A stretch of 64,000 nucleotides of DNA from Cyclobacteriaceae bacterium (GTDB lineage: Bacteria; Bacteroidota; Bacteroidia; Cytophagales; Cyclobacteriaceae): the NCBI GenBank assembly GCA_022842845.1, contig JALHOT010000006.1:110526-174525 (forward strand), in the 5' to 3' direction. The position numbers and the translations under genes are program-made. The notes below the pieces were generated by a model. It had not been told where the DNA came from. It made no database searches and saw nothing but the letters and a program-made list of their open reading frames with translations. Shown one piece after another: positions 3,148 through 63,469 of the stretch (positions are counted from its first letter, which is position 1; each line of letters opens with the position of its first letter).

Positions 3148-3211
3148 AATGTATGGGTTTAAAAAAGTGAGGTCTGCTTTTAACAGACCTCACTCTTTGT
3201 GTGTGATTTAT

Positions 3212-3745: not shown

Positions 3746-3788
3746 CAGTTTTTTAAATTTTCAATTTATTTTAGTTCACTTGACTGTT

Positions 3789-4301
3789 TCAGCTGTCAAT
3801 CTTTTGTTCTTCTTTTGACTGGATCTTACTTTTTGCTTCGTTCAATAAGTTGATGTTCGCTGTTGCTTTCTGACCCTTACTGAAGTTTTTAGAAATTAAC
3901 TGTAACGCTTTCTTTGTTTCTTCAAAAGCTTTTTTAGGATCATCGTAGGTGTCCGTCAGTTCCTGAGGTTGCGAGTCCCTTATTTGGGTTCTCACCAGCC
4001 AGAAGGAAGCCAGCACCACACTTATTCCCGCAGCAATCCTTAAACTACTGTATAAGAGACTCCTTACTTTAGTAGTTGTTGGTTCAAGTTTTCTTTTCAA
4101 TTCGCCATCGAACGATACATCTGTGATCATTTGTTGGCGTTGCTGCTCAAAGTATCTGAACAAAGAGGCTGATTCTTTGAGGTGCTGTGGAACATCTGAC
4201 TGATGAAAAAAATCGCGCAAGGTCTTTTCCTCTTCCAGGCTTGTTTCGCAGGCCCAATACTTTTCCAGCAATTGTTCTATTTTCTTAGAGTCCATAGGCA
4301 T
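3789..4301 (-). CDS. Putative anti-sigma factor (single TM)
   Basis: N-terminal IEQLLEKYWACETSLEEEKTL motif, one TM segment, overlaps the ECF sigma gene. Confidence 0.75.
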   Translation of the reverse strand: MPMDSKKIEQLLEKYWACETSLEEEKTLRDFFHQSDVPQHLKESASLFRYFEQQRQQMITDVSFDGELKRKLEPTTTKVRSLLYSSLRIAAGISVVLASFWLVRTQIRDSQPQELTDTYDDPKKAFEETKKALQLISKNFSKGQKATANINLLNEAKSKIQSKEEQKIDS

Positions 4302-4797
4302 TTGCTTTTACTAGTTTTTCACGAACGGCATTCCGTGCTCTGAACAGGTTTACTTTTACCTGATTCATATCCAGTTCCAGAATGTCGCAGATTTCATTGT
4401 AGCTATACCCCTCCACATCGCGAAGGTGCATTACCTGCCTTTGCTTTTCAGGTAAGGCAGCCATTAATTGGTTTACTCGCTGCATACTTTCACGTAGTTC
4501 AGTTGATTCGTGAGGCGTTAACGCTTCGTTACGAACATCAAAACTTCCATCAATCGATTGGGCCTGTCTTCGGTTATTAGAGCGTATGCGATCCAAGGAT
4601 AGATTTTTAGTGATGCGCATGCACCAAGCCTCCATATTTTGGATTTCTGCCATTTGCTCTCTACCGTTCCAAACCCGGATCATTACTTCCTGCACTACAT
4701 CCTTCGCTTCATCTTCGCTGCCCACTAGGCGCAAAGCAAAACGAAAAAGCTTGTTTTTTGCTGGTAAAACGCGATTTTGGAAAGATTCGAAATTCAT
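4285..4797 (-). CDS. ECF sigma-70 factor
   Basis: Region 2 (EAKDVVQEVMIRVW) and region 4 HTH (LPEKQRQVMHLRDVEGYSYNEIC...QVKVNLFRAR). Confidence 0.93.
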   Translation of the reverse strand: MNFESFQNRVLPAKNKLFRFALRLVGSEDEAKDVVQEVMIRVWNGREQMAEIQNMEAWCMRITKNLSLDRIRSNNRRQAQSIDGSFDVRNEALTPHESTELRESMQRVNQLMAALPEKQRQVMHLRDVEGYSYNEICDILELDMNQVKVNLFRARNAVREKLVKANAYGL

Positions 4798-21924: not shown

Positions 21925-22758
21925 CTAGCGTTTCCGGAAGATTTTAGCTTCTTCGTCCACGAGTTCAAACTTAGTATAGTTTATCCACGAAAGCATGGTG
22001 TCGTAAAAGCCAATAACGAAAAGCCCCCCTGGATTTAAAGCATCATAGAATTTATCGAGCAGTTTTACTTTAGCAGGATTATCGAAATAAATCATGACGT
22101 TTCGGCACAAAATCAAGTCATAAGTTGATTTAACGGGATCTGTAATAAGATTATGAAACTCATAGGTAGCATAGTTCTTTAACTCATCCACCATGGTAGC
22201 CTCAGCCCCTTCGGTAACATAATACTTCGTAAAATCGCTGTAAATATTGTACTGCTTAAAATTAGCCTCATTCTCGATCATTTTTATTTTATGGTACCGG
22301 CCATTTTTGGCTTCTTCCATAGCCTGCTTATTGATATCCGTGGCAAGTGCTTTCGTTTTATGTCTTAAGCCAATCTCTCCTAGTAATATAGCCATCGAAT
22401 AGACTTCTTCACCCGTAGAACACCCGGCATGCCAGATGGATAAACTCTCATGATTTTTAAAATCATCCTTTAACCTGTGTTTAAGGTGCTTCCAAAAAAT
22501 TGGGTCACGAAACATAGAGGTCATGCCTACGCTAACCTCATTCATAAAGACATGTATGAAAGAGCTATCCTTTAGTAATCTTACCCATAAGCCATGAATC
22601 GAGTCAAAATTGTAAAGATTGAGCAACCTAACGATCCGCCTTCTTAATGATTTAGGTTCATAACAAGTAAAATCTATACCGTATCGTGTTAAAATACTTT
22701 GGGCTAGTGATCTAACTTCTTCTTCTGATACATCCACTGATGTTGCATTCTTCTCCAT
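21925..22758 (-). CDS. cheR: Chemotaxis methyltransferase CheR
   Basis: IWHAGCSTGEEVYSMA, DLILCRNVMIYFD, LNPGG. Confidence 0.93.
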   Translation of the reverse strand: MEKNATSVDVSEEEVRSLAQSILTRYGIDFTCYEPKSLRRRIVRLLNLYNFDSIHGLWVRLLKDSSFIHVFMNEVSVGMTSMFRDPIFWKHLKHRLKDDFKNHESLSIWHAGCSTGEEVYSMAILLGEIGLRHKTKALATDINKQAMEEAKNGRYHKIKMIENEANFKQYNIYSDFTKYYVTEGAEATMVDELKNYATYEFHNLITDPVKSTYDLILCRNVMIYFDNPAKVKLLDKFYDALNPGGLFVIGFYDTMLSWINYTKFELVDEEAKIFRKR

Positions 22759-22768
22759 TCATGTTTTA

Positions 22769-25624
22769 TTAAACTACTGCCATAACTGGTACTCGATCTT
22801 CAACTACCCTAATCAGTACAAAGACCAACCTTGCTATATTTCCCTCTAAATTTCTTATAACCGTTAAGGATGATTCGAAAGTAGCAGCCTTCCCCTTATA
22901 GCTAAAAGGAATAAGAACAGTGGAATGATCTTGTTTTAAAACCTCATCTTTCATGTTAGCAAACACGTCATGATAATATTCTTCTACAAAATCATTAAAT
23001 ACTTTACCCCTCAGCTCAGTACGGGATAAAGCAAAAAACTTCATAAACTTATCATTGGCTGTTTTACAACTGAAGTCTTCGTTGAATTCAATAATAGGAA
23101 GTGTTGCCTTTAAAGATCCCACCAATGAAGAAAGATCATTAATCTTTTCTTTTTCTTGTGTGGTGAATTGAGCAAACATCATAATCTTCTCTGGCACTTC
23201 AGTATCTACAATAATGGGATTGAAAGTACCTGTCAACCATAATTCTCTGCCTTCTTTATTTTTAAGCCTGAATTCGCCTGAGAAAAACTTACCCAGTCTT
23301 AAATTATCCCACATCATGTGTACAGTGGGCTCATCTTGCATTATATCAAGGTAATTAGCGCCTTGTAACTCTTCACCTTTAAAGCCCATTACAGCCATAA
23401 AGATGTCGTTGCCTCTGATAAACTTACCTTCGACATTAAATTCTGCTGAGGCAATTGTGTTGTTAATAGCCGATAGATAACTGGTTAACTCTAATTGTTT
23501 TCGCTCAGCCTGCTTCTCTAATTCTTTCTGCTTGGTAACATCCACACCAAACTCAATTATTTTAATGAGATCACCTTTTAAGTCAACAACCGGGTAATCC
23601 ATGAGCTTCAGGCAATGAACGTTACCCAATTTATCAAAACGTTTAAATTCACCACTTTGCAATCCATTTACTTCAATCTCATGGAGCAACTTTGTGAATA
23701 TATGTTCCTTCCTAGATACGATACTGTATGACCTGCCTATTAAATCATTGATTTCATAACCAAGTAAATGAGCATAATTATCATTGACCTCAATGATATT
23801 ACCTTCCAAATCCAACTCCATGATGGCATTGGATTTACTCAGGGCTTTCATCTTTTGGTGAAAATCCAAAGCCCGCATTTTGGTATCTGTAATATCAGCT
23901 TGTATAGAAATATACTTTACCACATCACCTTCCTCATTGGTGACAGGGTTGATAGCTAGCGAAACCCAATAAGTTTCACCCTGTTTATTATAGTTTAATA
24001 TCTCTTCAAAAACAGGTTTCTTCTCGGCAATGATATGTCTCAACTTTCTAACAGTGTCTTTATCAGTAAGCGGACCTTGCAATAAATGACCAGGTTTTTT
24101 GCCTATAATCTCGTGCGGCTCGTAACCAGTCATTTTGGTAAAACCTTCATTGACATACTCTGTTAATCCGTTGGCATCAGTAATAATAACCGAATTATCA
24201 GTATTGTTTGCCACCAGCGAAAGTCTTTCAAATTCAATTTCCTTGCTCTTCTTACCTGTTATATCCTGAATCATGCAGAGCACCTTCTCAACTTCTTGCT
24301 GCGCATTGATCATTGGTGTAAATGTGATGCTTAACCAGACAGATTCGCCCTGTTTATCGTATGTCTCAAAATCTCCTGACTTAATTTTACCACTCACGAA
24401 TTCCTGCCATGCCATTAACTGCTTTCTCATCAGCAGAGAGTAATCCTTATTCAATAAGTCTGCCACTTCACATTTTAAAAAAGAAGCTAACAGGGGATTA
24501 GCTTTGATGAGCTTGCCTGATAATGAAAACTCAGCAGTGGCCAAGGTAGAATCAATTGCATTAATGATGCCTGATAGCTCAGTTTGTTTGCGAGCCATTT
24601 CCTCTTGAGTGGCGGCAAGCTCCTCAAGATTCTGTTTCATCTCCTCTTCTCTTGTCTGGAGCTCTGCTGTGAGTGATTTAGATTCATTCAATAAAGACTG
24701 TGTGCGTTGATATCCTTTCATGGAAGCCATTTCGGAAGCAATATTTTCTACAACCCGCTTCAGAAACTCCACTTGATGTGGCTTCATTACTTCAAAAAGT
24801 GCCAATTCAATAGCTCCGTAGAATTGCTCATTGAATATCAAAGGAGCCACTACAATATTTCTGGGGGTGGCCTCTCCTAAACCAGAGGTAATTTTTACGT
24901 AGCTGGAAGGAACATCCGTAATAAAGACAAAGTCCTTTTCAAGCATGCATTGACCCAAAATACCCTCCCCCTCATTAACCCTTCTTTCGATAAACTTTTT
25001 CCTATCATAAGCATAACAGGCTATCATTTCTAAATATCGACCGCTTTGCAGATCGGATTCTTCAAGAAATAAAGCTGCTTGGTTAGCCCCAAGATATTTA
25101 ACAAGCTGGCTTACAATTTTCTGACTGTATTGTCCTAATTCAGTTTTATCACGTAAAATTTCGCTAAAGCGAGCCAAGCCATCATTCACCCAGTTACGCT
25201 TGCTTTCTTCTTCCTTCAATTGTTGCAACTGCCCTCTTACTGCACTCAAAGCCTCGCCAATAGCGTCATCTTTTAGCAGATCATCCATTTTACCCTGGGT
25301 ATCGGAAGAATCAATTTGCTTAATGTACTGAGCCGTTAAATTTAATTTTCTCTCAATCAGTTTTTGATTCTCCTGTAGATGATCAAAAGATTGTAGTGTT
25401 AGAACACCACCCTTTGCTTTGTTTTTACCAAGTAATGCGTTCGTTTCATTAAGTAAATATTGCCCGAGCTTTGAAATCAGGTTGAGCATCCACACCAAGG
25501 AAATAAAAGCTCCCAATGTACCCACTAGTATCAAGCTGAAGTGCTGATGAAAAAAAGCCAGTATAGCGGTTAGTCCTATAAAAGAGACCAGTAATGAAAC
25601 GGCAAGCTGAATTTTAAGCTTCAT
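22769..25624 (-). CDS. Membrane-anchored HAMP-like/GAF/coiled-coil/multi-PAS protein without an output domain
   Basis: Two N-terminal TMs, GAF (ACYAYDRKKF...GILGQC), coiled coil EEEMKQNLEELAATQEEM, about five PAS domains; no kinase, MA or cyclase motifs seen. Confidence 0.8.
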   Translation of the reverse strand: MKLKIQLAVSLLVSFIGLTAILAFFHQHFSLILVGTLGAFISLVWMLNLISKLGQYLLNETNALLGKNKAKGGVLTLQSFDHLQENQKLIERKLNLTAQYIKQIDSSDTQGKMDDLLKDDAIGEALSAVRGQLQQLKEEESKRNWVNDGLARFSEILRDKTELGQYSQKIVSQLVKYLGANQAALFLEESDLQSGRYLEMIACYAYDRKKFIERRVNEGEGILGQCMLEKDFVFITDVPSSYVKITSGLGEATPRNIVVAPLIFNEQFYGAIELALFEVMKPHQVEFLKRVVENIASEMASMKGYQRTQSLLNESKSLTAELQTREEEMKQNLEELAATQEEMARKQTELSGIINAIDSTLATAEFSLSGKLIKANPLLASFLKCEVADLLNKDYSLLMRKQLMAWQEFVSGKIKSGDFETYDKQGESVWLSITFTPMINAQQEVEKVLCMIQDITGKKSKEIEFERLSLVANNTDNSVIITDANGLTEYVNEGFTKMTGYEPHEIIGKKPGHLLQGPLTDKDTVRKLRHIIAEKKPVFEEILNYNKQGETYWVSLAINPVTNEEGDVVKYISIQADITDTKMRALDFHQKMKALSKSNAIMELDLEGNIIEVNDNYAHLLGYEINDLIGRSYSIVSRKEHIFTKLLHEIEVNGLQSGEFKRFDKLGNVHCLKLMDYPVVDLKGDLIKIIEFGVDVTKQKELEKQAERKQLELTSYLSAINNTIASAEFNVEGKFIRGNDIFMAVMGFKGEELQGANYLDIMQDEPTVHMMWDNLRLGKFFSGEFRLKNKEGRELWLTGTFNPIIVDTEVPEKIMMFAQFTTQEKEKINDLSSLVGSLKATLPIIEFNEDFSCKTANDKFMKFFALSRTELRGKVFNDFVEEYYHDVFANMKDEVLKQDHSTVLIPFSYKGKAATFESSLTVIRNLEGNIARLVFVLIRVVEDRVPVMAVV

Positions 25625-25628
25625 AATA

Positions 25629-26234
25629 CTAGCTGGCTAGATGAATTCTACCTTCAGGTACTGACTCAAATATCTTAGAGCTGAGTTTCCATAAAAACTG
25701 AGGATGAACCCTTTCACTCACATTAAACTGAAACGTAGTATTAGAAAGTATCATGGCAGAACGATCCATCCCTTCTACTTCTCTTTCCATAAAATTTTCC
25801 AATTCCTCTGCCTTCATTCTTTTCAACATGGGAACATCGCCATACACTTCTAATTTCAGATTATTCGAAAGTTCTGAAATAACAGATGCTGAAATAATGT
25901 TATCAATTTCCATCAGTAAAGCATCGTTCAACTGGTGGCTGACAAAACCAAAGGTTTGGGAAGTTATCTTAACAATTTCTGACGTTTCGTCAGCGTTAAG
26001 AATCAGATACGATTTACCCGAAAGGTCACCAATTAATTTAGTCACCAACACAATAATTTCTCCATCCTCGTCAGAAATACAAGAGAAGTCGTTAGCATGC
26101 CTTACCAATACCGATTGTGTATTGGTAATTTTCACAGACTTACCAATGAAGGAAGAAAAGGCATCAGAAGCACGCTGAAAGCCCTGATTCATAATGTGGA
26201 TAATAAATTTTTCACGCTCTCTGTTATGATCCAT
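25629..26234 (-). CDS. cheC: CheC-family CheY-P phosphatase
   Basis: Second-half motif E-I-D-N-x22-P is intact; CheC-like spacing of helices and strands; che operon context. Confidence 0.82.
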   Translation of the reverse strand: MDHNREREKFIIHIMNQGFQRASDAFSSFIGKSVKITNTQSVLVRHANDFSCISDEDGEIIVLVTKLIGDLSGKSYLILNADETSEIVKITSQTFGFVSHQLNDALLMEIDNIISASVISELSNNLKLEVYGDVPMLKRMKAEELENFMEREVEGMDRSAMILSNTTFQFNVSERVHPQFLWKLSSKIFESVPEGRIHLAS

Positions 26235-26245
26235 AGCTGTAGGGC

Positions 26246-28036
26246 TTAGTTAAGAGAAAAGTTTTTAGATGCTCTGCCATGTGAAGACAGACTGAAAATA
26301 AAATGGAGAATGAAGGGCACATTCAACACCAAACAAACATTGCCGCTGCCAAGAATTGTAACGCCACCAATAAACTTGATTTTATCAACAGGTTTCATCA
26401 ATGGTTTTTCAACAATTTCCTTTTGTTGCAACAGTTTATCCACTACAAAACCTACCGTTCTGTTGTTAAAGCTTACGACTACTATATCTAATTTTTCTTC
26501 AGGATGAACCAGATCATGTGTCTTTTGTAAAGCATTATTAGATTGGCCTATCACTGTTGGATCATAGTCAAAAACGTCCTTAAGAAAAACGATAGAAATA
26601 TTTTTACCCAAATGAGAAGCTACTAAACCTCCACCTGCCTTGTGTATATCAGATCGATATAAAGAAATGACTGATTCTGTATAAGCAAGGGGTATAGCAT
26701 AAACCTCATCTTTCAATTCGAACAGTAGACAAGATTTAACAGCCATTGATGAAGGGAGCGTAAGCTGAATAGTGGTTCCGACACCTGGCTCACTTATTAC
26801 TTTAATCTCTCCGCCTATGGTATCAAGTGTTTTGCGTACCACATCCATGCCAACACCTCGACCTGCAATAGCTGTTACCTGGTCCATGGTGGAAAAGCCA
26901 GGCTCGAAAATCAACAGGCTTAACTCGTCAGTAGTCATGCGTGATACGTCTTCTTCCGTTACCAACCCTTTGGCAATAGCTTTTGACTTTATCCTATCAT
27001 AGTTCAAACCTTTACCATCGTCTTTGATTTCGATGATCACCGCATCAGTTTCTCCGCGAGCTGTTAACCAAACGGTTCCTTCTTTGGGTTTACTTGCAGC
27101 CAAACGTTCTTCAGGGCTCTCGATACCATGCCCCACAGAGTTGCGCACAATATGAATCAATGAGTCACTGATCACTTGCAACACATTCCTGTCAATTTCC
27201 GTGTCGGTGCCTTCAAGTTTCAATACCACGTTCTTCTTTTCAATAGTGGCAGCATCACGTACCACTCTATGAAACTTATTAAATAAAAATCCTACCTGCA
27301 CTAAACGAACATCCATTACTGAATACTGAAGGTCAGAACTTATCCTGCTTAACCGGGCATATTCGTTAGAACCCTGCAAACCACTGGCCGCGCGAGAAGC
27401 CAATATTCTATCCTTTTCAATAATCAGCTCTCCCACAAGATTTAGCAGATTATCAAGCTTTCTGACAGGCACTTGTACCAGATCAGAAAAGGAAAGCTTA
27501 TTATCCGATTCGTCCGGAGATTCAGACTCTTCTTCATCAGAAGGCTGATTGCCAACCCCAATGGCCTCCGGTACGAATGGACTTTGAACAGAAGTCTCCA
27601 GCCCCACCGGATTCTCCTGTTTTTCTTCAATTACTTCTTTTACTTTATCCTCATTAGCACGTTTTACAATAACTTCAAGCTTGGTTTTGATGCCTTTGTA
27701 CTTTACTTCCTTACCATCTCTCACAGAATTTACCAAAGCCCCTAATGTATCAGCTGCTTTAAATAATGATCCAAACAAAGACTCGTCTAGTATAATTTTT
27801 CCCTCTCTTACTTCACCAAACAAATCTTCCAGAACGTGGGCCATTTCTGCTATGCCGGTATACCCCATGCCTGCGGCATTGCCTTTTAGGGTATGCGTTA
27901 TGCGAAAAAGTGCATGCACAGTATTTTTATCGCTGCGACTTTTTTCCAGTACAGTAAGAAGTCTGTTAATTTCTTCAAAGTTCTCGAGCGCTTCTGCTAA
28001 AAAGATCTCTTTATATTCTTCTTCCTTGTTGCTCAT
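26246..28036 (-). CDS. cheA: Chemotaxis histidine kinase CheA (no P2 domain)
   Basis: HPt HTLKGNAAGMG, dimerisation LDNLLNLVGELII, N box RNSVGHG, G1 DDGKG, G2 GRGVGMDVV, C-terminal CheW-like domain. Start set to MSNKEEEY (28036), just after the cheB stop. Confidence 0.95.
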   Translation of the reverse strand: MSNKEEEYKEIFLAEALENFEEINRLLTVLEKSRSDKNTVHALFRITHTLKGNAAGMGYTGIAEMAHVLEDLFGEVREGKIILDESLFGSLFKAADTLGALVNSVRDGKEVKYKGIKTKLEVIVKRANEDKVKEVIEEKQENPVGLETSVQSPFVPEAIGVGNQPSDEEESESPDESDNKLSFSDLVQVPVRKLDNLLNLVGELIIEKDRILASRAASGLQGSNEYARLSRISSDLQYSVMDVRLVQVGFLFNKFHRVVRDAATIEKKNVVLKLEGTDTEIDRNVLQVISDSLIHIVRNSVGHGIESPEERLAASKPKEGTVWLTARGETDAVIIEIKDDGKGLNYDRIKSKAIAKGLVTEEDVSRMTTDELSLLIFEPGFSTMDQVTAIAGRGVGMDVVRKTLDTIGGEIKVISEPGVGTTIQLTLPSSMAVKSCLLFELKDEVYAIPLAYTESVISLYRSDIHKAGGGLVASHLGKNISIVFLKDVFDYDPTVIGQSNNALQKTHDLVHPEEKLDIVVVSFNNRTVGFVVDKLLQQKEIVEKPLMKPVDKIKFIGGVTILGSGNVCLVLNVPFILHFIFSLSSHGRASKNFSLN

Positions 28037-28046
28037 ACGCCTGCAT

Positions 28047-29087
28047 TTATAAACAGCTGACAATAAAACCTGATATTTGTGCGAGGGGGACAATTTGCTT
28101 TACAGCTCCATATTCAAAAGCAGCTTTAGGCATACCATACACAACCGATGAGTCCTCATCCTGCGCAATAGTGTATCCTCCCATATTTTTAATCTTGGCC
28201 ATGCCTAACATTCCATCCTTACCCATTCCGGTAAGTATGACACCTATGCTCCTGCTTCCATAGGTGTCGGCAACAGAGTCAAAAAGGCAATCGATTGAGG
28301 GATAATTAAACTCTTCAAATTTTTTATTGGTATAGGTAATCATTGGTTGCCCGGTGATCATATTTTTTTCGATGCAGGTATTTGACTCCCCGTTGGCTAC
28401 ATAAATATTTCCGCCCTTGAGGGTTTCACCTCTTCTACCCAGTTTTACAGGTAAGGGACTATTTTCATTTAACCTTTCTGAAAATGTTTCTAAAAACCGT
28501 GGGGGCATGTGCTGTGCTATGACCACTGGAATTTGAAGATTTCGAGGTAGGTTATTGATAATTAACTCTACCGCACCGGGTCCACCAGTTGAGGCACCAA
28601 TAACGATGATATCGTAATTAAGTGTTTGGGTGAAAGTATGGGTGTGTGTATTTTTATTTGACTGCTGGCGGTTTTTCAGCAGGTTAGTATCCGTAAGCGA
28701 AGCTTCACGAATAAGTTTTAATAGAGGATAATTAAATGCATTTCGGCTATCTGCATCGGTTGGTTTGTCAATAAACTCGAAAGCACCATACTGCAGGGCA
28801 TCAAAAATGCGTGAATTGGTTTTGTTCAATGAACTTAAGACGATGATAGGTGTGGGCCGCTTATCCATAACCGCCTTCACCAGGTACATACCATCATACT
28901 CAGGCATCACCATGTCAGTAATAACCACATCAGGCTTTAACTCCAAAGCCATATCGCTCCCTACCCTGCCGTCTTTCGCTGTACCAACTATTTCAATTGA
29001 AGCATCTGCACTAATCAGATCCGTAATTAACTTACGCATCAGGGCAGAGTCATCAACAACAAGGGTACGAATGCGCTCGGCAGACAT
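28047..29087 (-). CDS. cheB: Chemotaxis methylesterase CheB (REC + esterase)
   Basis: REC TDMVMP; catalytic GASTGG (Ser), QHMP (His), LTGMGKDG (Asp). Confidence 0.95.
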   Translation of the reverse strand: MSAERIRTLVVDDSALMRKLITDLISADASIEIVGTAKDGRVGSDMALELKPDVVITDMVMPEYDGMYLVKAVMDKRPTPIIVLSSLNKTNSRIFDALQYGAFEFIDKPTDADSRNAFNYPLLKLIREASLTDTNLLKNRQQSNKNTHTHTFTQTLNYDIIVIGASTGGPGAVELIINNLPRNLQIPVVIAQHMPPRFLETFSERLNENSPLPVKLGRRGETLKGGNIYVANGESNTCIEKNMITGQPMITYTNKKFEEFNYPSIDCLFDSVADTYGSRSIGVILTGMGKDGMLGMAKIKNMGGYTIAQDEDSSVVYGMPKAAFEYGAVKQIVPLAQISGFIVSCL

Positions 29088-29099
29088 GGTATAGAGAGA

Positions 29100-29456
29100 T
29101 TAAGCGTTAGTAACTGCTTGAACTAATTGTTCATTGGTGAATGGTTTCACTATATAAGCGCGTGCACCCAGTCGAAGTCCTTCATTTACAACAGATTCTT
29201 GACCAACAGCACTAATCATAACCACTTTTGATTTAAGACCTTCTTCCTGATACACCTTCAAAATATCTGTCCCGATCATATCAGGAAGAATATTATCCAG
29301 TGTGATCAAATCAGGCTGCAGTTCAAAAGCCAAATCGATAGCTTCTTCTCCATTAGCAGCCTGACCAACAACGCTGTACCCATTACCCTCCAGCGCATCT
29401 TTAATTAAGGTGCGCATGTAAAGAGAATCATCTACTATTAGAACACTCTTAGCCAT
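29100..29456 (-). CDS. cheY: Single-domain response regulator CheY
   Basis: IVDDS, LDNILP (phospho-Asp), MISAVGQ, IVKPF; Bacillus/Thermotoga/archaeal-type CheY features. Confidence 0.9.
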   Translation of the reverse strand: MAKSVLIVDDSLYMRTLIKDALEGNGYSVVGQAANGEEAIDLAFELQPDLITLDNILPDMIGTDILKVYQEEGLKSKVVMISAVGQESVVNEGLRLGARAYIVKPFTNEQLVQAVTNA

Positions 29457-29471
29457 GGTAGTTTAGTTTAA

Positions 29472-29909
29472 TTAATAAATTTTATATTCATTACTTTGTG
29501 AAAAACGAACTGTCATTGTTCCGGTCTTGGCATCAAACTTTGCAGATCGACTTTGTATTCCTCCAACATCTTGTGCAGCGATATAAATTCTTTGTTGAAT
29601 GAGCTGCTCAAGTACTGAGCTTGCATTTTGGGCACCTACTTCATAGCCTGTAGCGATAACATTTGCACCCCCCACCACTTTGGCTCTCAAATTAAGCAGG
29701 TCGCTGCCCAAAGCCTTAAACTGTTTTAGTAGTTCTGCAACAACGGTTGGTACATGTTGTGGAAGCAATATGTGAGCTCCTCCAGAAATACCAGTTTGGC
29801 GATCTTGGAGAAATAAACCAATACAAGAACCAAGCCCCAAACAATTGTATGTTGTTTCTTCATGGTTACTAACTACCAACTCATCAATATTTAATTTATA
29901 CTCCGTCAT
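29472..29909 (-). CDS. cheD: Chemoreceptor glutamine deamidase CheD
   Basis: GLGSCIG (catalytic Cys), GAHILLP (His), AKVVGGA, DVGG..SR motifs. Confidence 0.88.
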   Translation of the reverse strand: MTEYKLNIDELVVSNHEETTYNCLGLGSCIGLFLQDRQTGISGGAHILLPQHVPTVVAELLKQFKALGSDLLNLRAKVVGGANVIATGYEVGAQNASSVLEQLIQQRIYIAAQDVGGIQSRSAKFDAKTGTMTVRFSQSNEYKIY

Positions 29910-30418
29910 GCTGCAGTTGCCTTCTTCAAGTTTGTCGTTAACTCCTGATCTACCACTTTAAAGATGTCAATCAGAATAATTAAGCGCTCACCGGTTTTGA
30001 TAATGCCTTTGATATAATTTACCTCAGCATTAGCATCTGCGATGATACCCACTGACTCATCAAGGTCATTGGCATTGACTGAAATTGTATTGGGTACTTC
30101 ATTGACCAGAAGGCCCATCTTTAAATCCTCGCTTTCTACCACAAGCGTATAGCGCTTGCCTGAAAGTTGCGTTTCAGTTCTTTGCAAGTTGAATCGTTCT
30201 TCTAAATCAAAAATGGCAATTACATTTCCTCTAATATTGGCCACACCCTTCACATAATGCGGTGTTTGTGGCATTTTCGTAATATTAGGCGTAATGACTA
30301 CCTCTTTAATCTGATCGATTCTTAATCCATATTCTTCCTGACCCAATTTAAAAACTACAATCTGCAGTGTTCTTTGGGTATTGTTTTCAGTTTGTTTTGA
30401 TGCAGTTACTTCGGCCAT
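29906..30418 (-). CDS. cheW: Chemotaxis adaptor CheW
   Basis: VVFKLGQEEYGL, PHYVKGVANIRGNVI. Confidence 0.95.
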   Translation of the reverse strand: MAEVTASKQTENNTQRTLQIVVFKLGQEEYGLRIDQIKEVVITPNITKMPQTPHYVKGVANIRGNVIAIFDLEERFNLQRTETQLSGKRYTLVVESEDLKMGLLVNEVPNTISVNANDLDESVGIIADANAEVNYIKGIIKTGERLIILIDIFKVVDQELTTNLKKATAA

Positions 30419-30446
30419 ACCTAATTATTTAAGGGTTTATCGATCG

Positions 30447-30490
30447 AGGTCATCATCCATCGATTGTTAACACAACCGATGGATGCACCT
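30447..30490. other. Strong intergenic stem-loop between the MCP gene and cheW, without a U-tract
   Basis: CATCCATCG...CGATGGATG perfect 9-bp arms, inner TTGT/ACAA and outer AGGT/ACCT pairs. Confidence 0.6.
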
Positions 30491-30498
30491 GAGCCTTT

Positions 30499-33099
30499 TT
30501 ACTTTCTTAGTTTAAACTGTTGAATTCCTGCTTGTAGTTCGGCAGCTACCGCAGATAGTTCATCACCCGCTTTAGCTATTTCCAACATACCAGAACTCAT
30601 CTGCTGGCTTGAGCTTGCCACTTGCTGTGTACCGGCAGCTGTCTCTTCAGATACCACTACGATCTGTTCTATGTTCTTCACAACAGTAGAGATAGCTTCC
30701 TTCTGTGTGCTGGTGGCTGATTGAATCTCTTTAGAAGAAGAGAAGGTTTCTTCACTCGTTTTGGCTATTTCCTGGAATATAACCTCAGCTTCAACGCTTG
30801 ACTTATTACCTTCCTTCACGCTGCTTTCCATGATTTCGATTGCCTTACCAGCAGCCTGTGTATCTTTCTGCACATCACCGATAATCTTCTCAATCTCTAC
30901 AGCAGATCTTCTGGAATCTTCTGCCAATTTTCTAATCTCTTCAGCCACCACTGCAAATCCACGGCCTGCATCTCCGGCTCTCGCTGCTTCAATGGCTGCA
31001 TTCAAAGCCAGTAAATTAGTTTGGCTGGCAATGTCAGTTATTACGTTCAGGGTACGGCCGATCTCCTCGGTACGTTTAGTGAGTACACTGATTGATTGTG
31101 AAGTCTGTCCGGCTGAATCCTTTATACCATTCATGTTGTTAACAAGTACTTTTACAGTTCTCATACCCTGGTTAGAACTTTCTAATCCTTTCTCAGCCGC
31201 TTTGTTAATCAGATTAGCCTTTTTCTCCATGTCATTTGAAGAACTCATCACATGGTTAATCAATTTAGAAGACTCATCAGTGCGAGAAGCCTGATCTTGC
31301 GCTCCTTTTGCCATTTGAGAAATGGCTGTAGCTACTTCGGCAGTATTACGCTTCATGTCATCTGTCTTTTTCTGCAAGAGATCAGAAGATTTAGCCACTA
31401 CATCTGAACCCTGGCTGATTTGCCCTAACACTGAGTTTAGATTATCAAGTGTTCTATTTACCTCGGCAGTCAAACCTCCATTATCAACTGCAGTGTTACA
31501 ACGTAGACTTAAGTCACCTTTCGACATGGCCTTGATGACGCGAATTACTTCAGTCATGTCCAATGCATACTTCACAACCTTATAGGGTTTGCCATCAGCA
31601 TCTTTGATAGGATTATAAGAGGCCTGAATATAAATCTCATCACCACTCTTCGTAATGCGCGTATAGGTTCCTACAAAATACTCACCACGGTTCAACGTAT
31701 CCCAGAAACTTCTGTATTCGGAACTCCGCGCATATTCAGGATCAACAAACATGCGATGGTGTTTACCTTTTAGTTCATTAATAGTATAACCAAGGGTCTT
31801 TAAGAAGTTATCGTTGGCATCAATGATCGTTCCGTCCATATTGAAGGAGATAACCGCGTTTGACATACCAATGGCTGCCAGTTGTCCTTCATAATCAATA
31901 TTTTTAAGTTTTTGTGCGGTGATGTCGTTCGCAAGCTTTATAACTTTTATGACATTGCCTTTATCATCTTTCATGGGCGTATAATTCGCCTGAAGCCAGA
32001 TGTCATTTCCATCCTTTGTCTTACGCTTAAACTCACCTGTTTGAGGATGACCATTTCTTAGGTTTACCCAAAGTTGTTGATATGCCTGGGAGCTCACGTA
32101 TGCAGGATCGCAAAAAATACGGTGATGTTTACCTTGAATCTCATCAAGGGTATACTTCATCGTATTTAAAAAAAGATCATTTGCCTTAATAACATTTCCA
32201 TCAGGTGTAAATTCGATATAGGCGTTAACAGCATTGATGGCACTCATGGTACCTTCTAATTCTTGCTGTTTCACCACTTGCTCTGTGATAACATAGCGTA
32301 CACCAATGTACTTGATCGGTTTACCATTAGGTCCCAAAACAGGAGCAATCAAAGCATCCACCCAATAAGCTGATCCATCTTTACATCTGTTCTTGATAAT
32401 GCCTCTGAATATCTTACCCTTTCCAATAGTAGCCCACAACTCCTTGAACACACTCTTAGGCATATCAGGATGACGGAACATGCTATGCGGTTGGCCGATA
32501 CACTCCTCGCGAGTATACTGCGATACCTCACACAATAAATCGTTAACATAAGTAATGTCTCCTTTTAGGTCGGCTTCAGAAACCACACATGCCACATTAA
32601 TCTGATCCATGCGGGTTTTTAGCTCTCGCTGCAAATCTTCAAGTTCCAAAGTGGACTTCTTTTGAACTGTAACATCCTTTACGTATAAAGTGCTTTGCAC
32701 TCTATCACCCGCAACAGCCTTTGTCACAGAAACTGCACACCAGAAACTATCTGATACACCACGCTTAACTTGCAATTCAACTTCTTCTCCACTCGATAAG
32801 GCTTGAATTTTAATTACTTGCTCTGGTGCAAATAAGGCAGATAAAGAATTACCAATTATCTGATTCTTATCTACTGCAAAAAGTGTAGCAGCCGATTTAT
32901 TAATGCTCAATAGCTGACCACCCTGATCAAACGTAATAATACCATCTACTGCCTGATCGTAAGCATCCACCTGTGCTTTCAATAAGTTTTCAATCTCGGT
33001 TAAGCGTTTACGAATCTCAGTAGAAGACTCTGACTTTGCAGCAGGGGCACTTCCTCCAGTACCACCATTTTCCTTATCCTGATAATAATTTGGTTTCAT
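30499..33099 (-). CDS. Soluble multi-PAS methyl-accepting chemotaxis protein, 44-heptad class
   Basis: No TM; four PAS domains, one with RHPDMP; hairpin tip [34 protein letters not shown]; manual count gives about 22 heptads per arm. Confidence 0.93.
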
Positions 33100-33133
33100 A
33101 AATCTTGATTTAACGATGTGTGTCTAGTTTAAT

Positions 33134-33301
33134 TTATAAGAGGCCTGCGGCATGTCCGATCATTACCAGGAACCAGGCAAGAGAGTATATAATAAAGAGT
33201 ATAGGGATAGTCCATGCAGCTATTACCAGAAACTGAATAAACCCTGAGCGCAGTGGCATCCATGTTTTATTGAGTCTGATCAATAGGGCCTTGTTCATCA
33301 T
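33134..33301 (-). CDS. 55-aa hydrophobic membrane peptide (not in the ORF track)
   Basis: Manual translation MMNKALLIRLNKTWMPLRSGFIQFLVIAAWTIPILFIIYSLAWFLVMIGHAAGLL*. The ATG lies 2 nt after the upstream stop, and the ORF fills the gap before the MCP. Confidence 0.7.
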   Translation of the reverse strand: MMNKALLIRLNKTWMPLRSGFIQFLVIAAWTIPILFIIYSLAWFLVMIGHAAGLL

Positions 33302-33303
33302 AA

Positions 33304-33828
33304 TTAGTTAAGACAAGTATGGTGAAAATCGAAATCGCTCACAGTGGGATATTTGATGACTGTAAGTTGCCTTGTTTGCCAGGTGTAGGGTCTTTGAGAA
33401 AATTGAATAAGCTCATTACCTTCTTTAATTAGCTTCTGTATTACAGGCCCCAAACTATCAGCCACCTCACCTTGTTGCTCAGCTCTTTCCAGCATCTCTT
33501 TGCGCACCATCGCATTTGTGTTAGTCCAACGCTCACCCTTCATGATTTTATAAAAAAGTGTTCTGGATGCTTGCGTAGATTTGCAAAAGCTTACAACAGC
33601 AGCATCATCGGCAAATGACCGAATTGCTTGTAGGAGTAATTGAGAAGACTTACCAACAGTTATGATTAATAAATGATGTTGATGGCTCATCATCATTACT
33701 TCATGATAATATGTACTCAAACCACCGAGATAAGCCAATACCTGCGTTTCATTGAAATTAGCCTTATGTCGAAGTTGATGAGGTATCAAATTCAGGTCAA
33801 TTTCTGCCGATGTAATAATAGCCTCCAT
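33304..33828 (-). CDS. Hypothetical protein, first gene of the che operon
   Basis: 174-aa ORF on the same strand, downstream of a terminator and a regulatory motif; no recognisable motif. Confidence 0.7.
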   Translation of the reverse strand: MEAIITSAEIDLNLIPHQLRHKANFNETQVLAYLGGLSTYYHEVMMMSHQHHLLIITVGKSSQLLLQAIRSFADDAAVVSFCKSTQASRTLFYKIMKGERWTNTNAMVRKEMLERAEQQGEVADSLGPVIQKLIKEGNELIQFSQRPYTWQTRQLTVIKYPTVSDFDFHHTCLN

Positions 33829-33974: not shown

Positions 33975-34012
33975 AAAAAAATAGCGCCACTCCCCAACAG
34001 AGAATGACGCTA
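33975..34012 (-). terminator. Intrinsic terminator after the PAS kinase
   Basis: Minus strand TAGCGTCATTCTC-tgttg-GGGAGTGGCGCTA followed by T7. Confidence 0.85.
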
Positions 34013-34044: not shown

Positions 34045-35229
34045 TTATTCAGACTGATTAAGCAGCTTTTTTCGATTGATCAACTTACCCTTAGGACTAT
34101 TGGGAATATATACCTTGAAAACACTTCCGAAACCCACTTCAGAATTAAGACTTATGTTTCCTCCTAATTGCTCTACCCCTTCTTTCGCTATATACAAGCC
34201 TAAACCTGCGCCTTTAGAATGCACGGAGGCCTTGTAAAACATATTAAAGATCGATTCAAAATACTGTTTGGCAATACCAATACCATTGTCGTGTATTTCA
34301 ATCAATACTGCATCGGAGGTAACCTCCGTAGTAATGTTTATAAATGAGTGTGCTTTATTGACATCGACAAACTGAATGGCATTTCTGATCAGGTTATCCA
34401 AAACAATTTCAATTCTATCTGAATCGTTATAAAATAAACTTGATCCCCTGACACTCACTTGGATTTTGATTTTTCCGAAGCTTTCATCTCCGCAATGGTT
34501 ATTGATAATTTTCCAAATCAATGATTCAAAATCAATCTTTTCACTATGAATATTTTTATAAGTTGTTTTAGAGAAACTTATAATGTCATGAATGATTTTG
34601 TCTAACTTATGAGTACTGGTCTCAATTTTATCTGCATACTCTACCAAAGTATTATCTTTCGAATCCATTCTGATAAGATTGACTAAGCCCATAATCGTAG
34701 TTAATGGCGCCCGTAAATCATGGGAGGTGCTATATAGAAACTTCTCCATCTGATGGTTAATCTTGGCCAGCTGTTGGTTTTTCAACTCCAGGTTCTGCTC
34801 AAAAGCCACCCTTTCAGAAATATCAAGAGCAGTCCAGTTAATCATGGGTTCTCCCAGTTCGTTAGTTTGTATTTGAACATTCACAAGGGCGACAATCTTC
34901 TTTCCACTTAAGGATTTGAAGTTAACAGCTAAACCCTGCACCCGATGTTCGCGTATTACACGGCTCTTTAATTTTTCGTATTCGGAGGGATCATGAAAAA
35001 GATCAGCAATAATAAATCCTTTGGCTCTTTTGTACTGGTTGAATCCAAAAGTTTCTACAAAAAGTCTGTTGCTGAACTGGAGTTGATCTTGTAGGGAGGA
35101 GCGAAAGATGATTTCAAAAGTATTATCAACAAACGAGCGATATAGGTTACGGAGTCTTAGGGCCTGCTTCCTGCGCTCTAAATCCTCCTCACTGCCATCT
35201 TTAATTAAATCTTGGTTCACCGCAATCAT
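34045..35229 (-). CDS. Cytoplasmic PAS sensor histidine kinase (HisKA)
   Basis: PAS, H-box SHDLRAPL, N box NLIRNAI, G1 DNGIGI, G2 GAGLGL. Confidence 0.92.
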   Translation of the reverse strand: MIAVNQDLIKDGSEEDLERRKQALRLRNLYRSFVDNTFEIIFRSSLQDQLQFSNRLFVETFGFNQYKRAKGFIIADLFHDPSEYEKLKSRVIREHRVQGLAVNFKSLSGKKIVALVNVQIQTNELGEPMINWTALDISERVAFEQNLELKNQQLAKINHQMEKFLYSTSHDLRAPLTTIMGLVNLIRMDSKDNTLVEYADKIETSTHKLDKIIHDIISFSKTTYKNIHSEKIDFESLIWKIINNHCGDESFGKIKIQVSVRGSSLFYNDSDRIEIVLDNLIRNAIQFVDVNKAHSFINITTEVTSDAVLIEIHDNGIGIAKQYFESIFNMFYKASVHSKGAGLGLYIAKEGVEQLGGNISLNSEVGFGSVFKVYIPNSPKGKLINRKKLLNQSE

Positions 35230-35332: not shown

Positions 35333-35986
35333 TTAGTTGATGATTTGTAACTGCCTTGCCTTCTTTACCAATTCGATAGCATTTTTTACAGTAAACTTTT
35401 TCATCAGGTTGGCTCGATGCGTCTCGACCGTACGCGGGCTGATGAATAATTTATCAGCCATTTGCTGACTAGTCAACCCTTCATCAATGAGTTGTATAAT
35501 CTCAACTTCTCTATTGGTGAGCTTCACTATTTCCTCGGGTTGTCTTTTACGCGTAACATTTTGCTTATACTTAGTCAAAATAACTTCTTGCACCTTCTGA
35601 CTGAAATATGTCTTGCCTTGTAAAATAGCCCGAACGGCATACTCTAATTCTTGTCCACTTTCGCTTTTCACTACATATCCTTTCACACCACTTTCAATAC
35701 AACGGCTTATGTAGTCCTCATCGTCATACATGGACAGCATGAGGATATTAGCATTGCTATCCATGTCAAGCACTTTTTTGGCAGCATCCATACCATTCAT
35801 GTCGGGCATGGAAATATCTAAGATTAAAAGATTGGGTTTAAGGGCAGCATATTTGTCAATGGCTTCCTGGCCATTAGATGCTTCGCCCACTACATGAAAA
35901 TCCTTTGCCTGTTTTAAAAGATTCTTTACGCCTTCACGAATCATCGCGTGGTCATCTGCCAATACTATCGTATACTTATTAGACAT
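35333..35986 (-). CDS. NarL/FixJ-family response regulator (REC + LuxR HTH)
   Basis: LADDH, LDISMP, GYVVK; HTH LTNREVEIIQLIDEGLTSQQMADKLFISPRTVETHRANLMKK. Confidence 0.95.
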   Translation of the reverse strand: MSNKYTIVLADDHAMIREGVKNLLKQAKDFHVVGEASNGQEAIDKYAALKPNLLILDISMPDMNGMDAAKKVLDMDSNANILMLSMYDDEDYISRCIESGVKGYVVKSESGQELEYAVRAILQGKTYFSQKVQEVILTKYKQNVTRKRQPEEIVKLTNREVEIIQLIDEGLTSQQMADKLFISPRTVETHRANLMKKFTVKNAIELVKKARQLQIIN

Positions 35987-35999
35987 TCAATTTTCCATT

Positions 36000-37400
36000 T
36001 TATTTGATCGGTACTTCTGCAATAATAAGCGTTCCCCGCTTATTATCACTCTCGATGGTCAATTTACCACCCATCATTTCAGTACGTTCGCGCATATTAA
36101 CAAGGCCATGGTGCGGCTTCCCATCATTCACAGGTTTGATTCCAATGCCATTGTCTTCCACTATGAGTCTTATGTTCTCCTGATTACTCATCAGTTGGAG
36201 ACTGATGGTGCTGGCTTGTGCATGTCGTATAGCATTGTTAATAGCCTCTTGTGCAATTCTATAGAAATTCACCTTTTGATTCTGCTCAACTGCCGGCACC
36301 TCACCTGTTTGTTGAAAGGTAACAGCTACGGTTAATGTTTCATGGATCTGCTTGCAGAGCGACTTTAAGCAGGTACTCAGATCAAAATCTTTCAGCTTAG
36401 AGGGTAAGAGATTTTCTGAAATTCTTACAGATTCTTGTATGGCCTCATCCATCAATTTACTGATATCAACAGCTTTGTTTTTATCACTCACAAGCATATT
36501 GATATTCATTTTAATAGCATTGAGCATTTGACCCAAGCCATCATGCAGATCTTTGGCGATACGGCTGCGCTCCTTTTCCTGGCCTTCAATTAAGGCAGCC
36601 ACCCGTGTATTTTCAAATTCTCGCAGCAAGCGGGCATGTTCTACCTTCTCCGTTAAGTCTTTAAACACCAACACATAACCAATTTGCTCTCCCCTTTTAT
36701 CAGTAATGGTACTAATGGTTCCATCTCCGATGGGTATTAACTTATTCTTTAACCGCAAAGATAAGCCCACCTGCAGGGTGTTGACTTCCTTCCCTAAAAC
36801 ACATTGAATAGGGTTTACCGGAAAATCTAAAGTCGTATCGTTTTGCAGAGGTAATATTTCTGTAATACTTTTTCCAATTGCAGTTTCCAGCTGCACAGCG
36901 GTAAGACTTTCGGCCGCAGTATTGAGGTAGGTTACATTAAACTGACTATCTACAATAACCAGGGCATCGCTCATGGCACGCACCGTAGCGTAATATTTCT
37001 CTTCGCTCTTTCTCAGTCTTGACTCAATATCATGCTTGTATAAAGCCATTTCAAGCACCGTAAAAATTTCCCGATCTTCAAAAGGCTTGGTTAAATAGCC
37101 ATAAGGCTCCGTTATTTTAGCGCGCTGGATGGTATCCTTATCGGTAAGGGCAGTGATGTAAATGACAGGAAGATTAAATCTGGTTTTGATTACACCTGCG
37201 GTTTGTATACCATCGATTTCACCGTTGAGCATGATATCCATCAATACTAAATCAGGCTTGGTGTGCTCCAGAAACTGGAGCGCCTTTTCTCCAGCATCCA
37301 GTATACCATAAACATGGTATCCTTCGCTCTCCAAAGTTTTTTGAAGGTGATAGGCAACAATAAAGGAGTCCTCTACAATCAGGATACCAGCTTTAGACAT
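36000..37400 (-). CDS. Hybrid REC-PAS-HisKA_3 sensor kinase
   Basis: N-terminal REC (MDIML), PAS, H-box ERSRIAKDLHDGLGQ, RIAQEAINNA, EDNGIG, GLVNMRER. Confidence 0.92.
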   Translation of the reverse strand: MSKAGILIVEDSFIVAYHLQKTLESEGYHVYGILDAGEKALQFLEHTKPDLVLMDIMLNGEIDGIQTAGVIKTRFNLPVIYITALTDKDTIQRAKITEPYGYLTKPFEDREIFTVLEMALYKHDIESRLRKSEEKYYATVRAMSDALVIVDSQFNVTYLNTAAESLTAVQLETAIGKSITEILPLQNDTTLDFPVNPIQCVLGKEVNTLQVGLSLRLKNKLIPIGDGTISTITDKRGEQIGYVLVFKDLTEKVEHARLLREFENTRVAALIEGQEKERSRIAKDLHDGLGQMLNAIKMNINMLVSDKNKAVDISKLMDEAIQESVRISENLLPSKLKDFDLSTCLKSLCKQIHETLTVAVTFQQTGEVPAVEQNQKVNFYRIAQEAINNAIRHAQASTISLQLMSNQENIRLIVEDNGIGIKPVNDGKPHHGLVNMRERTEMMGGKLTIESDNKRGTLIIAEVPIK

Positions 37401-45642: not shown

Positions 45643-46026
45643 TTAAATAGAACTAGCGGCAAAGGGTCTAGCAGCTTTTTTGAAATCTGCCTGGTCCCCT
45701 AATTCGTGCTTTGTAAAGTGATCGACAATATCCGCCTTATAATTAAGCTTAACCGCTAAGGCCTTACAATAAGCTGCTTCGTCAGCATGGATCTGGCCAT
45801 CCGCTTTGATGATGCGAAGTGCCCAGTACAATATGTCTGCCCGCGTGGGGGCATCTTTAAAGTCGTTTAAATTAACAGGGTGAGCTGCTTCTTGAATAGC
45901 ATGGTTATTCAAGCCTGCTTCTGCTAACAGGCTTTTTAATACATCTTTCTCTGTTTCATCAAACTTACCATCGATCGTTGCCAGGTGCACGAGTAGGTTT
46001 AATTTTTTTCGGATTACTTCTTCCAT
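45643..46026 (-). CDS. TerB-family (tellurite resistance/DjlA-like) protein
   Basis: Duplicated motif ATIDGKFDETE / IKADGQIHADE. Confidence 0.75.
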   Translation of the reverse strand: MEEVIRKKLNLLVHLATIDGKFDETEKDVLKSLLAEAGLNNHAIQEAAHPVNLNDFKDAPTRADILYWALRIIKADGQIHADEAAYCKALAVKLNYKADIVDHFTKHELGDQADFKKAARPFAASSI

Positions 46027-52876: not shown

Positions 52877-52897
52877 CAAATTTTTAATATTAGAATT

Positions 52898-56813: not shown

Positions 56814-56831
56814 AAAATAGCAATAATATTT

Positions 56832-63459: not shown

Positions 63460-63469
63460 TCCAGATTTT

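Follow-up and report, generated by a model that had tools for sequence, protein, structure and literature searches.

The window analysed here is the whole 64,000-nucleotide (nt) stretch of contig JALHOT010000006.1 (positions 110,526-174,525) from a Cyclobacteriaceae bacterium, and the coordinates of the operon are given in the numbering of this window. The minus strand between 33099 and 21925 was found to contain a complete set of chemosensory (che) genes. The list of open reading frames (ORFs), Pfam and NCBIfam together gave the order MCP-CheW-CheD-CheY-CheB-CheA-CheC-[TM-GAF-PAS]-CheR, where MCP is the methyl-accepting chemotaxis protein, that is, the receptor, and TM is a transmembrane segment. 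The reading frames of the operon are all open, the intergenic distances from MCP to CheR are 80, -4, 15, 12, 10, 11, 4 and 10 nt, and all sizeable genes between 33828 and 21925 are on the minus strand. An initial annotation of this DNA had placed every named che gene on one strand with tiny gaps and intact catalytic motifs, which was confirmed by Pfam, NCBIfam and a check of the motifs. The operon does lie in the interval 21925-33828 assigned to it, but its top part (33304-33828) lies outside MCP and is taken up by a gene of its own, of 174 amino acids (aa), with a 204-nt spacer between this and the MCP gene. Judged from its sequence, the operon is predicted to encode a functional chemosensory pathway, of a lineage conserved across non-flagellated Bacteroidota. 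A scan for CheA in species-representative genomes gave at least 338 relatives, and the loci compared below are the best 80 of these (47-75% identity).

Proteins of the operon and their predicted roles

The genes of the operon are as follows, in the direction of transcription:

30499-33099, minus strand: soluble chemoreceptor MCP, 866 aa; four PAS domains and MCPsignal (Pfam), a short HAMP-like linker and a signalling domain of the 44-heptad (44H) class
29906-30418, minus strand: CheW, single domain, 170 aa (Pfam CheW 9.3e-33)
29472-29909, minus strand: CheD receptor deamidase, 145 aa (Pfam CheD 3.3e-16; top NCBIfam model CheD_Thtga)
29100-29456, minus strand: CheY, single-domain response regulator, 118 aa (Pfam REC 4e-26)
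28047-29087, minus strand: CheB methylesterase with N-terminal REC, 346 aa (CheB_methylest 4.2e-60; NCBIfam CheB 345 bits, above cut-off)
26246-28036, minus strand: CheA, 596 aa, consisting of P1 (Hpt), an acidic linker, P3, P4 and P5 (Pfam Hpt, H-kinase_dim, HATPase_c and CheW)
25629-26234, minus strand: divergent CheC-family protein, a predicted phosphatase of phosphorylated CheY (CheY-P), 201 aa (NCBIfam CheC_Thtogales 2.4e-8)
22769-25624, minus strand: membrane-anchored sensor, 951 aa, with one or more N-terminal predicted TM segments, GAF, a coiled coil and five PAS domains (Pfam GAF and PAS)
21925-22758, minus strand: CheR methyltransferase, 277 aa (Pfam CheR 5.5e-39, and CheR_N)

In CheA the phosphorylatable H48 (HTLKG), the N box (HIVRNS) and the G1 and G2 boxes (DDGKG and GRGVG) are intact. 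Its start was set at ATG 28036 and not at TTG 28093 because the relatives align from residue 1 and cover residues 1-596. Pfam detected neither a P2 nor a REC domain in this protein; CheA without P2 is common. The key residues of CheY (D9/D10, D54, S83 and K104, read from the translation), the Ser, His and Asp motifs of CheB (GASTGG, QHM and GMGKDG), the Cys/His pair of CheD (GLGSC...GGAH) and the S-adenosylmethionine motif of CheR (GCSTGEE) are all present, and CheR has no TPR domain in Pfam.

CheC is the divergent member of the set and, taken alone, has no Pfam match. A profile (A1) made from 22 CheC relatives matched the CheC of Thermotoga maritima (1XKR) with an E value of 4.1e-14 over residues 4-176, which is nearly full length. 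The T. maritima protein reportedly has two active-site motifs of the form E-x2-N-x22-P. In the window protein the second of these (E109, N112 and P135) is invariant across the 22 relatives; the first reads HIMN, lacks the Pro and is thus degenerate. The profile and motif evidence marks it as a CheC-family member with one catalytic centre and with predicted phosphatase activity.

The receptor has no TM or hydrophobic segment. Its tip was located at D710 and is followed by 156 residues, or 22 heptads, and its closest PDB match is the 44H receptor TM1143 (2CH7), with 153 residues past the tip. The initial count of about 22+22 heptads agrees with a C-arm of 22 heptads comparable to that of TM1143; the 44H call is made from the C-arm length and not from class hidden Markov models (HMMs), and the boundary of the N-arm is inferred. 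The QQ methylation pairs reported earlier were also recovered, as two consensus sites at 821-830 and 828-837, and these are predicted substrates for a deamidase such as CheD. The second PAS domain (PAS2) matches the PAS domain of Escherichia coli Aer that binds flavin adenine dinucleotide (FAD) (8DIK, 2.4e-27), including the RHPDMP region, and it also matches the MmoS PAS (3EWK, 1.9e-29). By this homology PAS2 is an Aer-type FAD-PAS with predicted flavin binding, and its likeness to Aer makes a redox or energy signal the likely input. The receptors of related operons have no TM segment in 70 of 70 cases, and their C-arm measures 154-159 aa in 69 of 70 and 175 aa in one. An Aer-type PAS as a trait of the whole family was considered and rejected because it occurs in only 8 of the 70, which indicates that the sensor modules vary or are shuffled.

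The 951-aa protein has no transmitter domain in Pfam and is therefore taken as a sensor and not as an output. The LOV-type PAS at its residues 466-584 matches CagFbFP (1e-24); a photoactive LOV domain was rejected since GKKPGHLLQG replaces NCRFLQ, with Gly at the position of the adduct-forming Cys. In 40 of 78 loci a protein of the GAF/PAS kind is encoded between cheC and cheR; of 48 such proteins, 47 have TM segments.

The head of the unit is formed by two further features:

33304-33828, minus strand: accessory gene heading the unit, 174 aa; degenerate homologue of the glutamyl-tRNA reductase N-domain, catalytic Cys lost
33982-34012, minus strand: intrinsic-terminator-like hairpin (14-bp stem and T-run) that divides the upstream two-component genes from the che unit

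The 174-aa protein has no Pfam match; hhalign against a HemA-like family gave a probability of 97.7% and E=1.6e-12. The gene occupies the same position in 5 close relatives (about 30% identity), and the HemA-like family fills the same slot upstream of a PAS-rich receptor gene in loci L006 (3359-4630), L009, L011, L015 and L025. A HemA-like paralogue, or a truncated remnant of it that has lost its Cys, beside the receptor gene may hint at a tetrapyrrole link. The earlier suggestion that output might run through unknown genes inside the operon was not upheld, one of them being the GAF/PAS sensor without a transmitter and the other this degenerate glutamyl-tRNA reductase homologue. The spacer between the 174-aa and receptor genes also contains a hydrophobic ORF of 55 codons (33133-33300, minus strand; MMNKALLIRLNKTWMPLRSGFIQFLVIAAWTIPILFIIYSLAWFLVMIGHAAGLL), which is either a small membrane protein or a chance ORF. 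The hairpin and T-run at 34012-33982 close the upstream two-component genes, so the che transcription unit should start after about 33980. A sigma-70 promoter scan was uninformative, with 44 sites found against 46 expected.

Class and distribution of the pathway

The S1 Table of PMC9321776 (after Wuichet and Zhulin 2010) lists both CheC and CheD for class F1 only, with 44H receptors. The same table characterises class F9 by DosM (two signalling domains) and a triple-domain CheW, class ACF by CheA-REC, CheR-TPR and a 40H receptor, and class Tfp by a CheA with 5-6 Hpt domains and REC, again with a 40H receptor. The window has the F1 markers CheC, CheD and a 44H receptor. Assignment to F9 was rejected because there is one MCPsignal domain and one CheW domain, to ACF because CheA ends at P5, TPR is missing from CheR and the receptor is of the 44H class, and to Tfp because CheA has a single Hpt and no REC. 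The top NCBIfam models of CheA, CheY, CheD and CheC are haloarchaeal or Thermotogales models; that of CheA is haloarchaeal, with 372 bits against 306 for E. coli. Among PDB entries, P3-P5 of CheA scored 262 bits with T. maritima versus 240 bits with E. coli, and the best matches of CheY were the Pyrococcus horikoshii and T. maritima proteins. These marker genes and profile and PDB scores, rather than a CheA phylogeny, are the basis on which the operon is assigned to class F1 by descent and composition. The earlier argument for F1 from 44H, CheC and CheD thus holds for gene content and receptor class, but 44H alone is not specific, as 44H receptors are found in F9 as well. The resemblance of the gene order to archaeal che operons has no weight, since the S1 Table gives F1 no fixed order, and the archaeal emphasis was dropped because CheY is equally close to Thermotoga and archaeal CheY, which leaves nothing specifically archaeal. 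The F classes do not always control flagella (PMC9321776).

The contig belongs to Bacteroidota (Cytophagales), as had been required for the initial proposal; its best CheA matches are 72-75% identical, and as the closest locus has the upstream genes in common with it too, the source is taken to be a Cytophagales bacterium resembling Chryseolinea. The best 80 CheA relatives are all from Bacteroidota and have the same che gene order, MCP-W-(D)-Y-B-A-C-(GAF/PAS)-R being retained almost everywhere and CheD being present in about half of the related loci. The carriers are mainly Cytophagales (Chryseolinea, Pseudochryseolinea, Ohtaekwangia, Fulvivirga, Marivirga, Reichenbachiella and Ekhidna), with Aureispira and other Saprospiraceae and metagenome-assembled genomes (MAGs) of Sphingobacteriales, Chitinophagaceae and Flavobacteriales in addition. 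The operon is thus kept in order and sequence across several orders and, with CheA relatives in at least 338 species, represents a widespread Bacteroidota lineage and not a peculiarity of this genome. The median identity to the window proteins in 76 related loci is 76% for CheY, 55% for CheA and CheW, 49% for CheB, 45% for CheR and 30% for CheC; CheY is the most conserved protein of the operon, with a range of 67-93%. Flagella are regarded as generally lacking in Bacteroidetes, and Fulvivirgaceae (Chryseolinea, Fulvivirga and Ohtaekwangia) are described as non-flagellated or gliding (PMC6767994).

A literature search found no description or functional study of a Bacteroidota Che pathway, and the RefSeq annotation of Persicobacter already names the che genes. 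Systems of this kind are known, but no account was found of the present variant, in which a pathway of the F1 type occurs in a phylum lacking flagella, has a soluble receptor and a CheC with a single active site, and is linked to partner switches. A search of sequencing runs gave partial matches only, with at most 15% of words shared; they came from metagenomes of drinking water, freshwater and rivers, and none of them was RNA data. Two variants of the locus were observed in the relatives. The 9.1-Mb Cyclobacteriaceae chromosome OZ245814.1 carries two paralogous whole che operons about 13 kb apart (L016 and L021), each with a receptor and a TerB-like gene. An Aureispira MAG has four tandem paralogues of 126-140 aa with a weak DUF7793 match between cheW and cheY (L046, 6076-8302), of which L065 has one copy.

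Neighbouring genes and candidate outputs

Pfam scans of nearly all ORFs of at least 120 aa detected no flagellar, archaellar, CheF, type IX secretion system (T9SS) or gld/spr gene in the window, in line with the initial statement that fliM, fliY, cheF and flagellar genes are missing there. No flagellar, archaellar, CheF, T9SS or gliding gene recurs in the 80 related neighbourhoods, and the FliM/FliY N-terminal docking motif gave 0 matches in six frames of the window and of the 80 loci. The recurrent neighbours of the che operon are all signalling modules and never motility genes. Upstream of the che unit in the window lie:

34045-35229, minus strand: soluble HisKA/HATPase kinase, 394 aa (Pfam); part of the upstream two-component cluster
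35333-35986, minus strand: REC-LuxR (NarL-type) regulator, 217 aa (Pfam REC and GerE); candidate transcriptional output
36000-37400, minus strand: REC-PAS-HisKA_3-HATPase kinase, 466 aa (Pfam); candidate phospho-acceptor or relay
45643-46026, minus strand: TerB-like protein, 127 aa (Pfam TerB 9.6e-7); separated from the che side by the gene of a 2677-aa PAS kinase

A kinase of the REC-PAS-HisKA_3 type lies within 7.5 kb upstream of MCP in 13 of the 59 relatives with enough flank, and homologues of the 466-aa kinase (tblastn, 35-37% identity and 98-99% coverage) were found divergently beside the MCP gene in Marivirga (L059, L063, L069, L070 and L076). A response regulator of 200-232 aa, LuxR-type by homology to the window protein, is present upstream of the che operon in 22 of the 59, and the family of the 394-aa soluble kinase in 21 related loci. 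The TerB-like family directly adjoins the che operon in 10 relatives (among them L004, L005, L016, L017, L020, L021, L023, L028 and L043). Between the TerB-like and REC-kinase genes of the window, 37497-45530 (minus strand) encodes a 2677-aa soluble kinase with about 15 or more PAS domains, GAF and a transmitter of the HisKA_2/HWE type. In relatives, a TerB-like domain was also seen at the N-terminus of a 1016-aa ABC protein encoded downstream of PP2C modules. A gene for a ParA-like ATPase is found immediately upstream of the MCP gene in 27 relatives and was not found in the window. PpfA, a ParA-like protein, serves cytoplasmic arrays in Rhodobacter sphaeroides.

In other clades, a coiled-coil SpoIIE-PP2C phosphatase is encoded next to cheR in 16 loci, and its partners are DUF6272 (SiaB-like) and SiaC-family proteins or STAS and RsbW-like proteins. 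The STAS version was seen in three Aureispira loci and one Saprospiraceae locus (L046, L065, L067 and L074), and an RsbW-like kinase and a SulP transporter follow STAS in the three of these with long enough flank. Some PP2C proteins of the related loci carry an N-terminal REC or REC-like domain, as in the REC-PP2C of L038. The most direct connection was found in two Persicobacter species, which have the che operon on large plasmids. In each of them cheA and cheB are separated by a gene whose 680-aa product unites a CheC-like domain, REC, a coiled coil and SpoIIE-PP2C:

L081, 13826-15868 (P. psychrovividus pPP4): CheC-REC-PP2C fusion
L082, 8799-10838 (Persicobacter sp. JZB09 plasmid 2): CheC-REC-PP2C fusion

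The CheC-like part is 28% identical to the window CheC (E=1e-19) and keeps the active site. Compared over the full length, the two copies have 62% identity, which indicates that the fusion is a real gene; the RefSeq label is only "SpoIIE family protein phosphatase". Downstream of cheR, some relatives also have stand-alone BLUF (blue-light FAD) proteins (L017, L058 and L078) or single-domain Hpt and REC proteins (L050, L055 and L080), which fit in with the idea that a flavin or light and phosphorelay network surrounds the operon.

Other parts of the window hold features apart from the chemosensory genes. The stretch 51611-63988 has a low GC content (32-36% versus about 40%), starts with a tyrosine integrase and continues with a Mrr-like nuclease, a SRAP peptidase, DUF2971, McrBC (McrC and a McrB-like protein of the AAA_5 type) and a NTPase of the KAP family; it has the appearance of a mobile or defence island that has integrated here. 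A 320-aa protein encoded on the plus strand at 14224-15186 matches the domain with which pentameric ligand-gated ion channels bind their ligand (Neur_chan_LBD); at 29.5 bits the match is weak but above threshold. On the minus strand at 2079-4797, an ECF sigma factor, a 170-aa protein without family match and three tandem DUF4252 proteins form a typical Bacteroidota envelope-signalling cluster.

Proposed pathway and comparison with known systems

The soluble multi-PAS 44H receptor would form a cytoplasmic array with CheW and CheA, and this array may report the intracellular redox or energy state, as suggested by the Aer-type FAD-PAS of the receptor. The membrane-anchored GAF/PAS protein of the operon may add further cues. 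CheA would phosphorylate CheY and CheB; adaptation would be performed by CheR, CheB and CheD, the last acting on the QQ sites, and the single-site CheC would dephosphorylate CheY-P. The output would be a regulatory cascade, here probably the adjacent pair of REC-kinase and LuxR-type regulator, with a PP2C partner switch encoded elsewhere in this genome as a possible second route. In other clades the output would be the PP2C partner-switch set beside the operon or fused into it.

We regard a non-flagellar output of the pathway as highly probable. That this output is specifically regulatory is put forward tentatively, at slightly less than an even chance, on the ground that the physical links found, whether through fusion or through neighbourhood, all lead to REC-bearing signalling enzymes. 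The idea of a non-flagellar co-option in the initial annotation is therefore plausible, and the comparative evidence directs it first to regulatory modules, namely PP2C partner switches and NarL-type two-component pairs; no direct genomic evidence for the gliding part of that idea was found. Several observations weigh against a regulatory output. Between the upstream two-component cluster and the che unit stands the strong terminator, so that the link to the REC-kinase and LuxR pair in this genome is one of neighbourhood only. The hmmsearch profiles gave no significant PP2C (f10), SiaB-like or SiaC match in any frame of the window. The linked modules differ between clades, while a free CheY is universal and the most conserved protein, which argues for an additional shared target. 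Finally, a dedicated CheY-P phosphatase together with the full adaptation set is typical of the control of behaviour on a scale of seconds.

The main rival, possible though doubtful, is the control of gliding, in which CheY-P would bind the T9SS/Gld machinery, for example cytoplasmic GldL or the adhesin track, and alter speed or reversals. This would give surface energy taxis or aerotaxis, and the PP2C and two-component modules would be slower side branches. The operon is present in the gliding genera Chryseolinea, Fulvivirga, Ohtaekwangia, Marivirga, Aureispira and Reichenbachiella; it brings the full kit for fast signalling, a CheC with an invariant active site along with CheR, CheB and CheD; and the universal free CheY with its high median identity implies one conserved partner. 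Class F1 has been re-targeted to another motor in archaea through CheF (PMC7289035), a REC protein is reported to bind the T9SS motor subunit PorL (PMC5005315), which would serve as a precedent, and the sensory steering of T9SS-driven gliding is called poorly understood (PMC12422006). Against this, the neighbourhoods of the 80 loci show no recurrent gld, spr or T9SS machinery gene, a FliM-N-like docking motif is absent from the window and from these loci alike, and the gene fusion leads to PP2C and not to a motor. Flavobacterium johnsoniae and other well-studied gliders are not known to use che genes for gliding, which also counts against it. Regulatory output and control of gliding could both be true together.

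It is improbable that CheY-P acts directly on some other non-flagellar process, such as differentiation, aggregation, contact-dependent predation or exopolysaccharide, with the neighbouring modules being unrelated. Predatory Aureispira is among the carriers, and the chemosensory systems of Myxococcus govern development and other functions (PMC3945109), but the neighbourhoods show no such machinery and this is a residual category. Ordinary flagellar chemotaxis, with flagellar genes elsewhere in the host genome, is very unlikely. F1 systems normally drive flagella or archaella and this genome was viewed over 64 kb; the relatives with the operon, however, are in families described as non-flagellated (PMC6767994), no flagellar gene is in the window or recurrent in the 80 loci, the sole receptor is soluble and CheA has no P2. 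A decaying, functionless relic of an ancestral flagellar system is hardly credible, for although CheC has lost one active site, CheA has no P2 and roughly half of the relatives lack CheD, the frames are open, the spacing is tight, the catalytic residues are intact, and order and sequence are conserved across several orders with CheY identities of 67-93%.

Bacteroidota are prominent among the colonisers of surfaces in soil, in water and on hosts, and hundreds of their species, which lack the usual Che target, have conserved a complete Che pathway with adaptation. The comparison offers as output candidates the CheC-REC-PP2C fusion, the REC-PP2C partner switches, the REC-kinase and LuxR-type pair and, by elimination, the gliding machine. 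Cultured carriers exist in Marivirga, Fulvivirga, Chryseolinea, Ohtaekwangia and Persicobacter. If CheY does dock on the T9SS gliding machinery, this would be the first known sensory-to-motor link for Bacteroidota gliding, and the gliding machine would join the flagellum and the archaellum as a third kind of motor driven by a Che system.

Among the known systems, the operon is most readily set beside class F1 as in T. maritima, Bacillus subtilis, haloarchaea and methanogens, with which it shares CheA, CheW, CheY, CheB and CheR together with CheC and CheD and a 44H receptor with QQ sites; the best-scoring references for its CheY, CheC, CheD and CheA come from Thermotoga and archaea. It differs from them in that the host lineage has no flagellum or archaellum, the window has no FliM, FliY, CheF or CheV, CheA is without P2, CheC has one active site and not two, the sole receptor is soluble, and the relatives couple the operon to PP2C partner switches. 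PAS2 of the receptor resembles that of E. coli Aer and of soluble Aer-like energy-taxis receptors, but the receptor departs from E. coli Aer in its four PAS domains, in having no anchor in the membrane, and in a signalling domain that is of the 44H and not the 36H class. Soluble 44H receptors, and in relatives the ParA-like ATPase beside the receptor gene, recall cytoplasmic arrays such as those of Vibrio cholerae F9 (DosM/CheW3) and R. sphaeroides (PpfA), whereas the double signalling domain and triple CheW of V. cholerae F9 and a gene for a ParA-like protein were not found in the window. A non-motility, regulatory output would be shared with ACF systems such as Wsp, here as the favoured reading only, and the CheA-REC fusion, CheR-TPR and 40H receptor of these systems are absent.

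In the Frz system of Myxococcus xanthus CheA is fused to REC (FrzE), FrzZ has two REC domains and CheR carries TPR, and CheC and CheD are not known from it; the window has none of these fusions, and the motility machines are unrelated. The likeness is that Frz, too, is a Che-type pathway that has a cytoplasmic receptor and belongs to a glider lacking flagella (PMC3945109 and PMC6952110). The switch SiaABC(D) of Pseudomonas aeruginosa, which works by threonine phosphorylation (PMC7647112), has its counterpart in the PP2C, SiaB-like (DUF6272) and SiaC proteins encoded after cheR in several Bacteroidota relatives; the Pseudomonas module is not attached to a Che pathway, and the window does not have the module. 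These likenesses extend to the sigma-B pathway of Bacillus cereus, in which RsbY is a REC-PP2C phosphatase. In the RsbK-RsbM-RsbY module (PMC4574943) the signalling helix of a kinase is methylated by a CheR-like enzyme, and the kinase feeds a phosphatase that drives a partner switch. The B. cereus module is without CheA, CheW, an MCP array, CheB, CheC or CheD, and the window itself is without PP2C; the logic of the module matches the REC-PP2C and CheC-REC-PP2C proteins attached to the Bacteroidota Che lineage. If the output is indeed regulatory, a system of the flagellar class F1 would have been rewired to partner-switch regulation.

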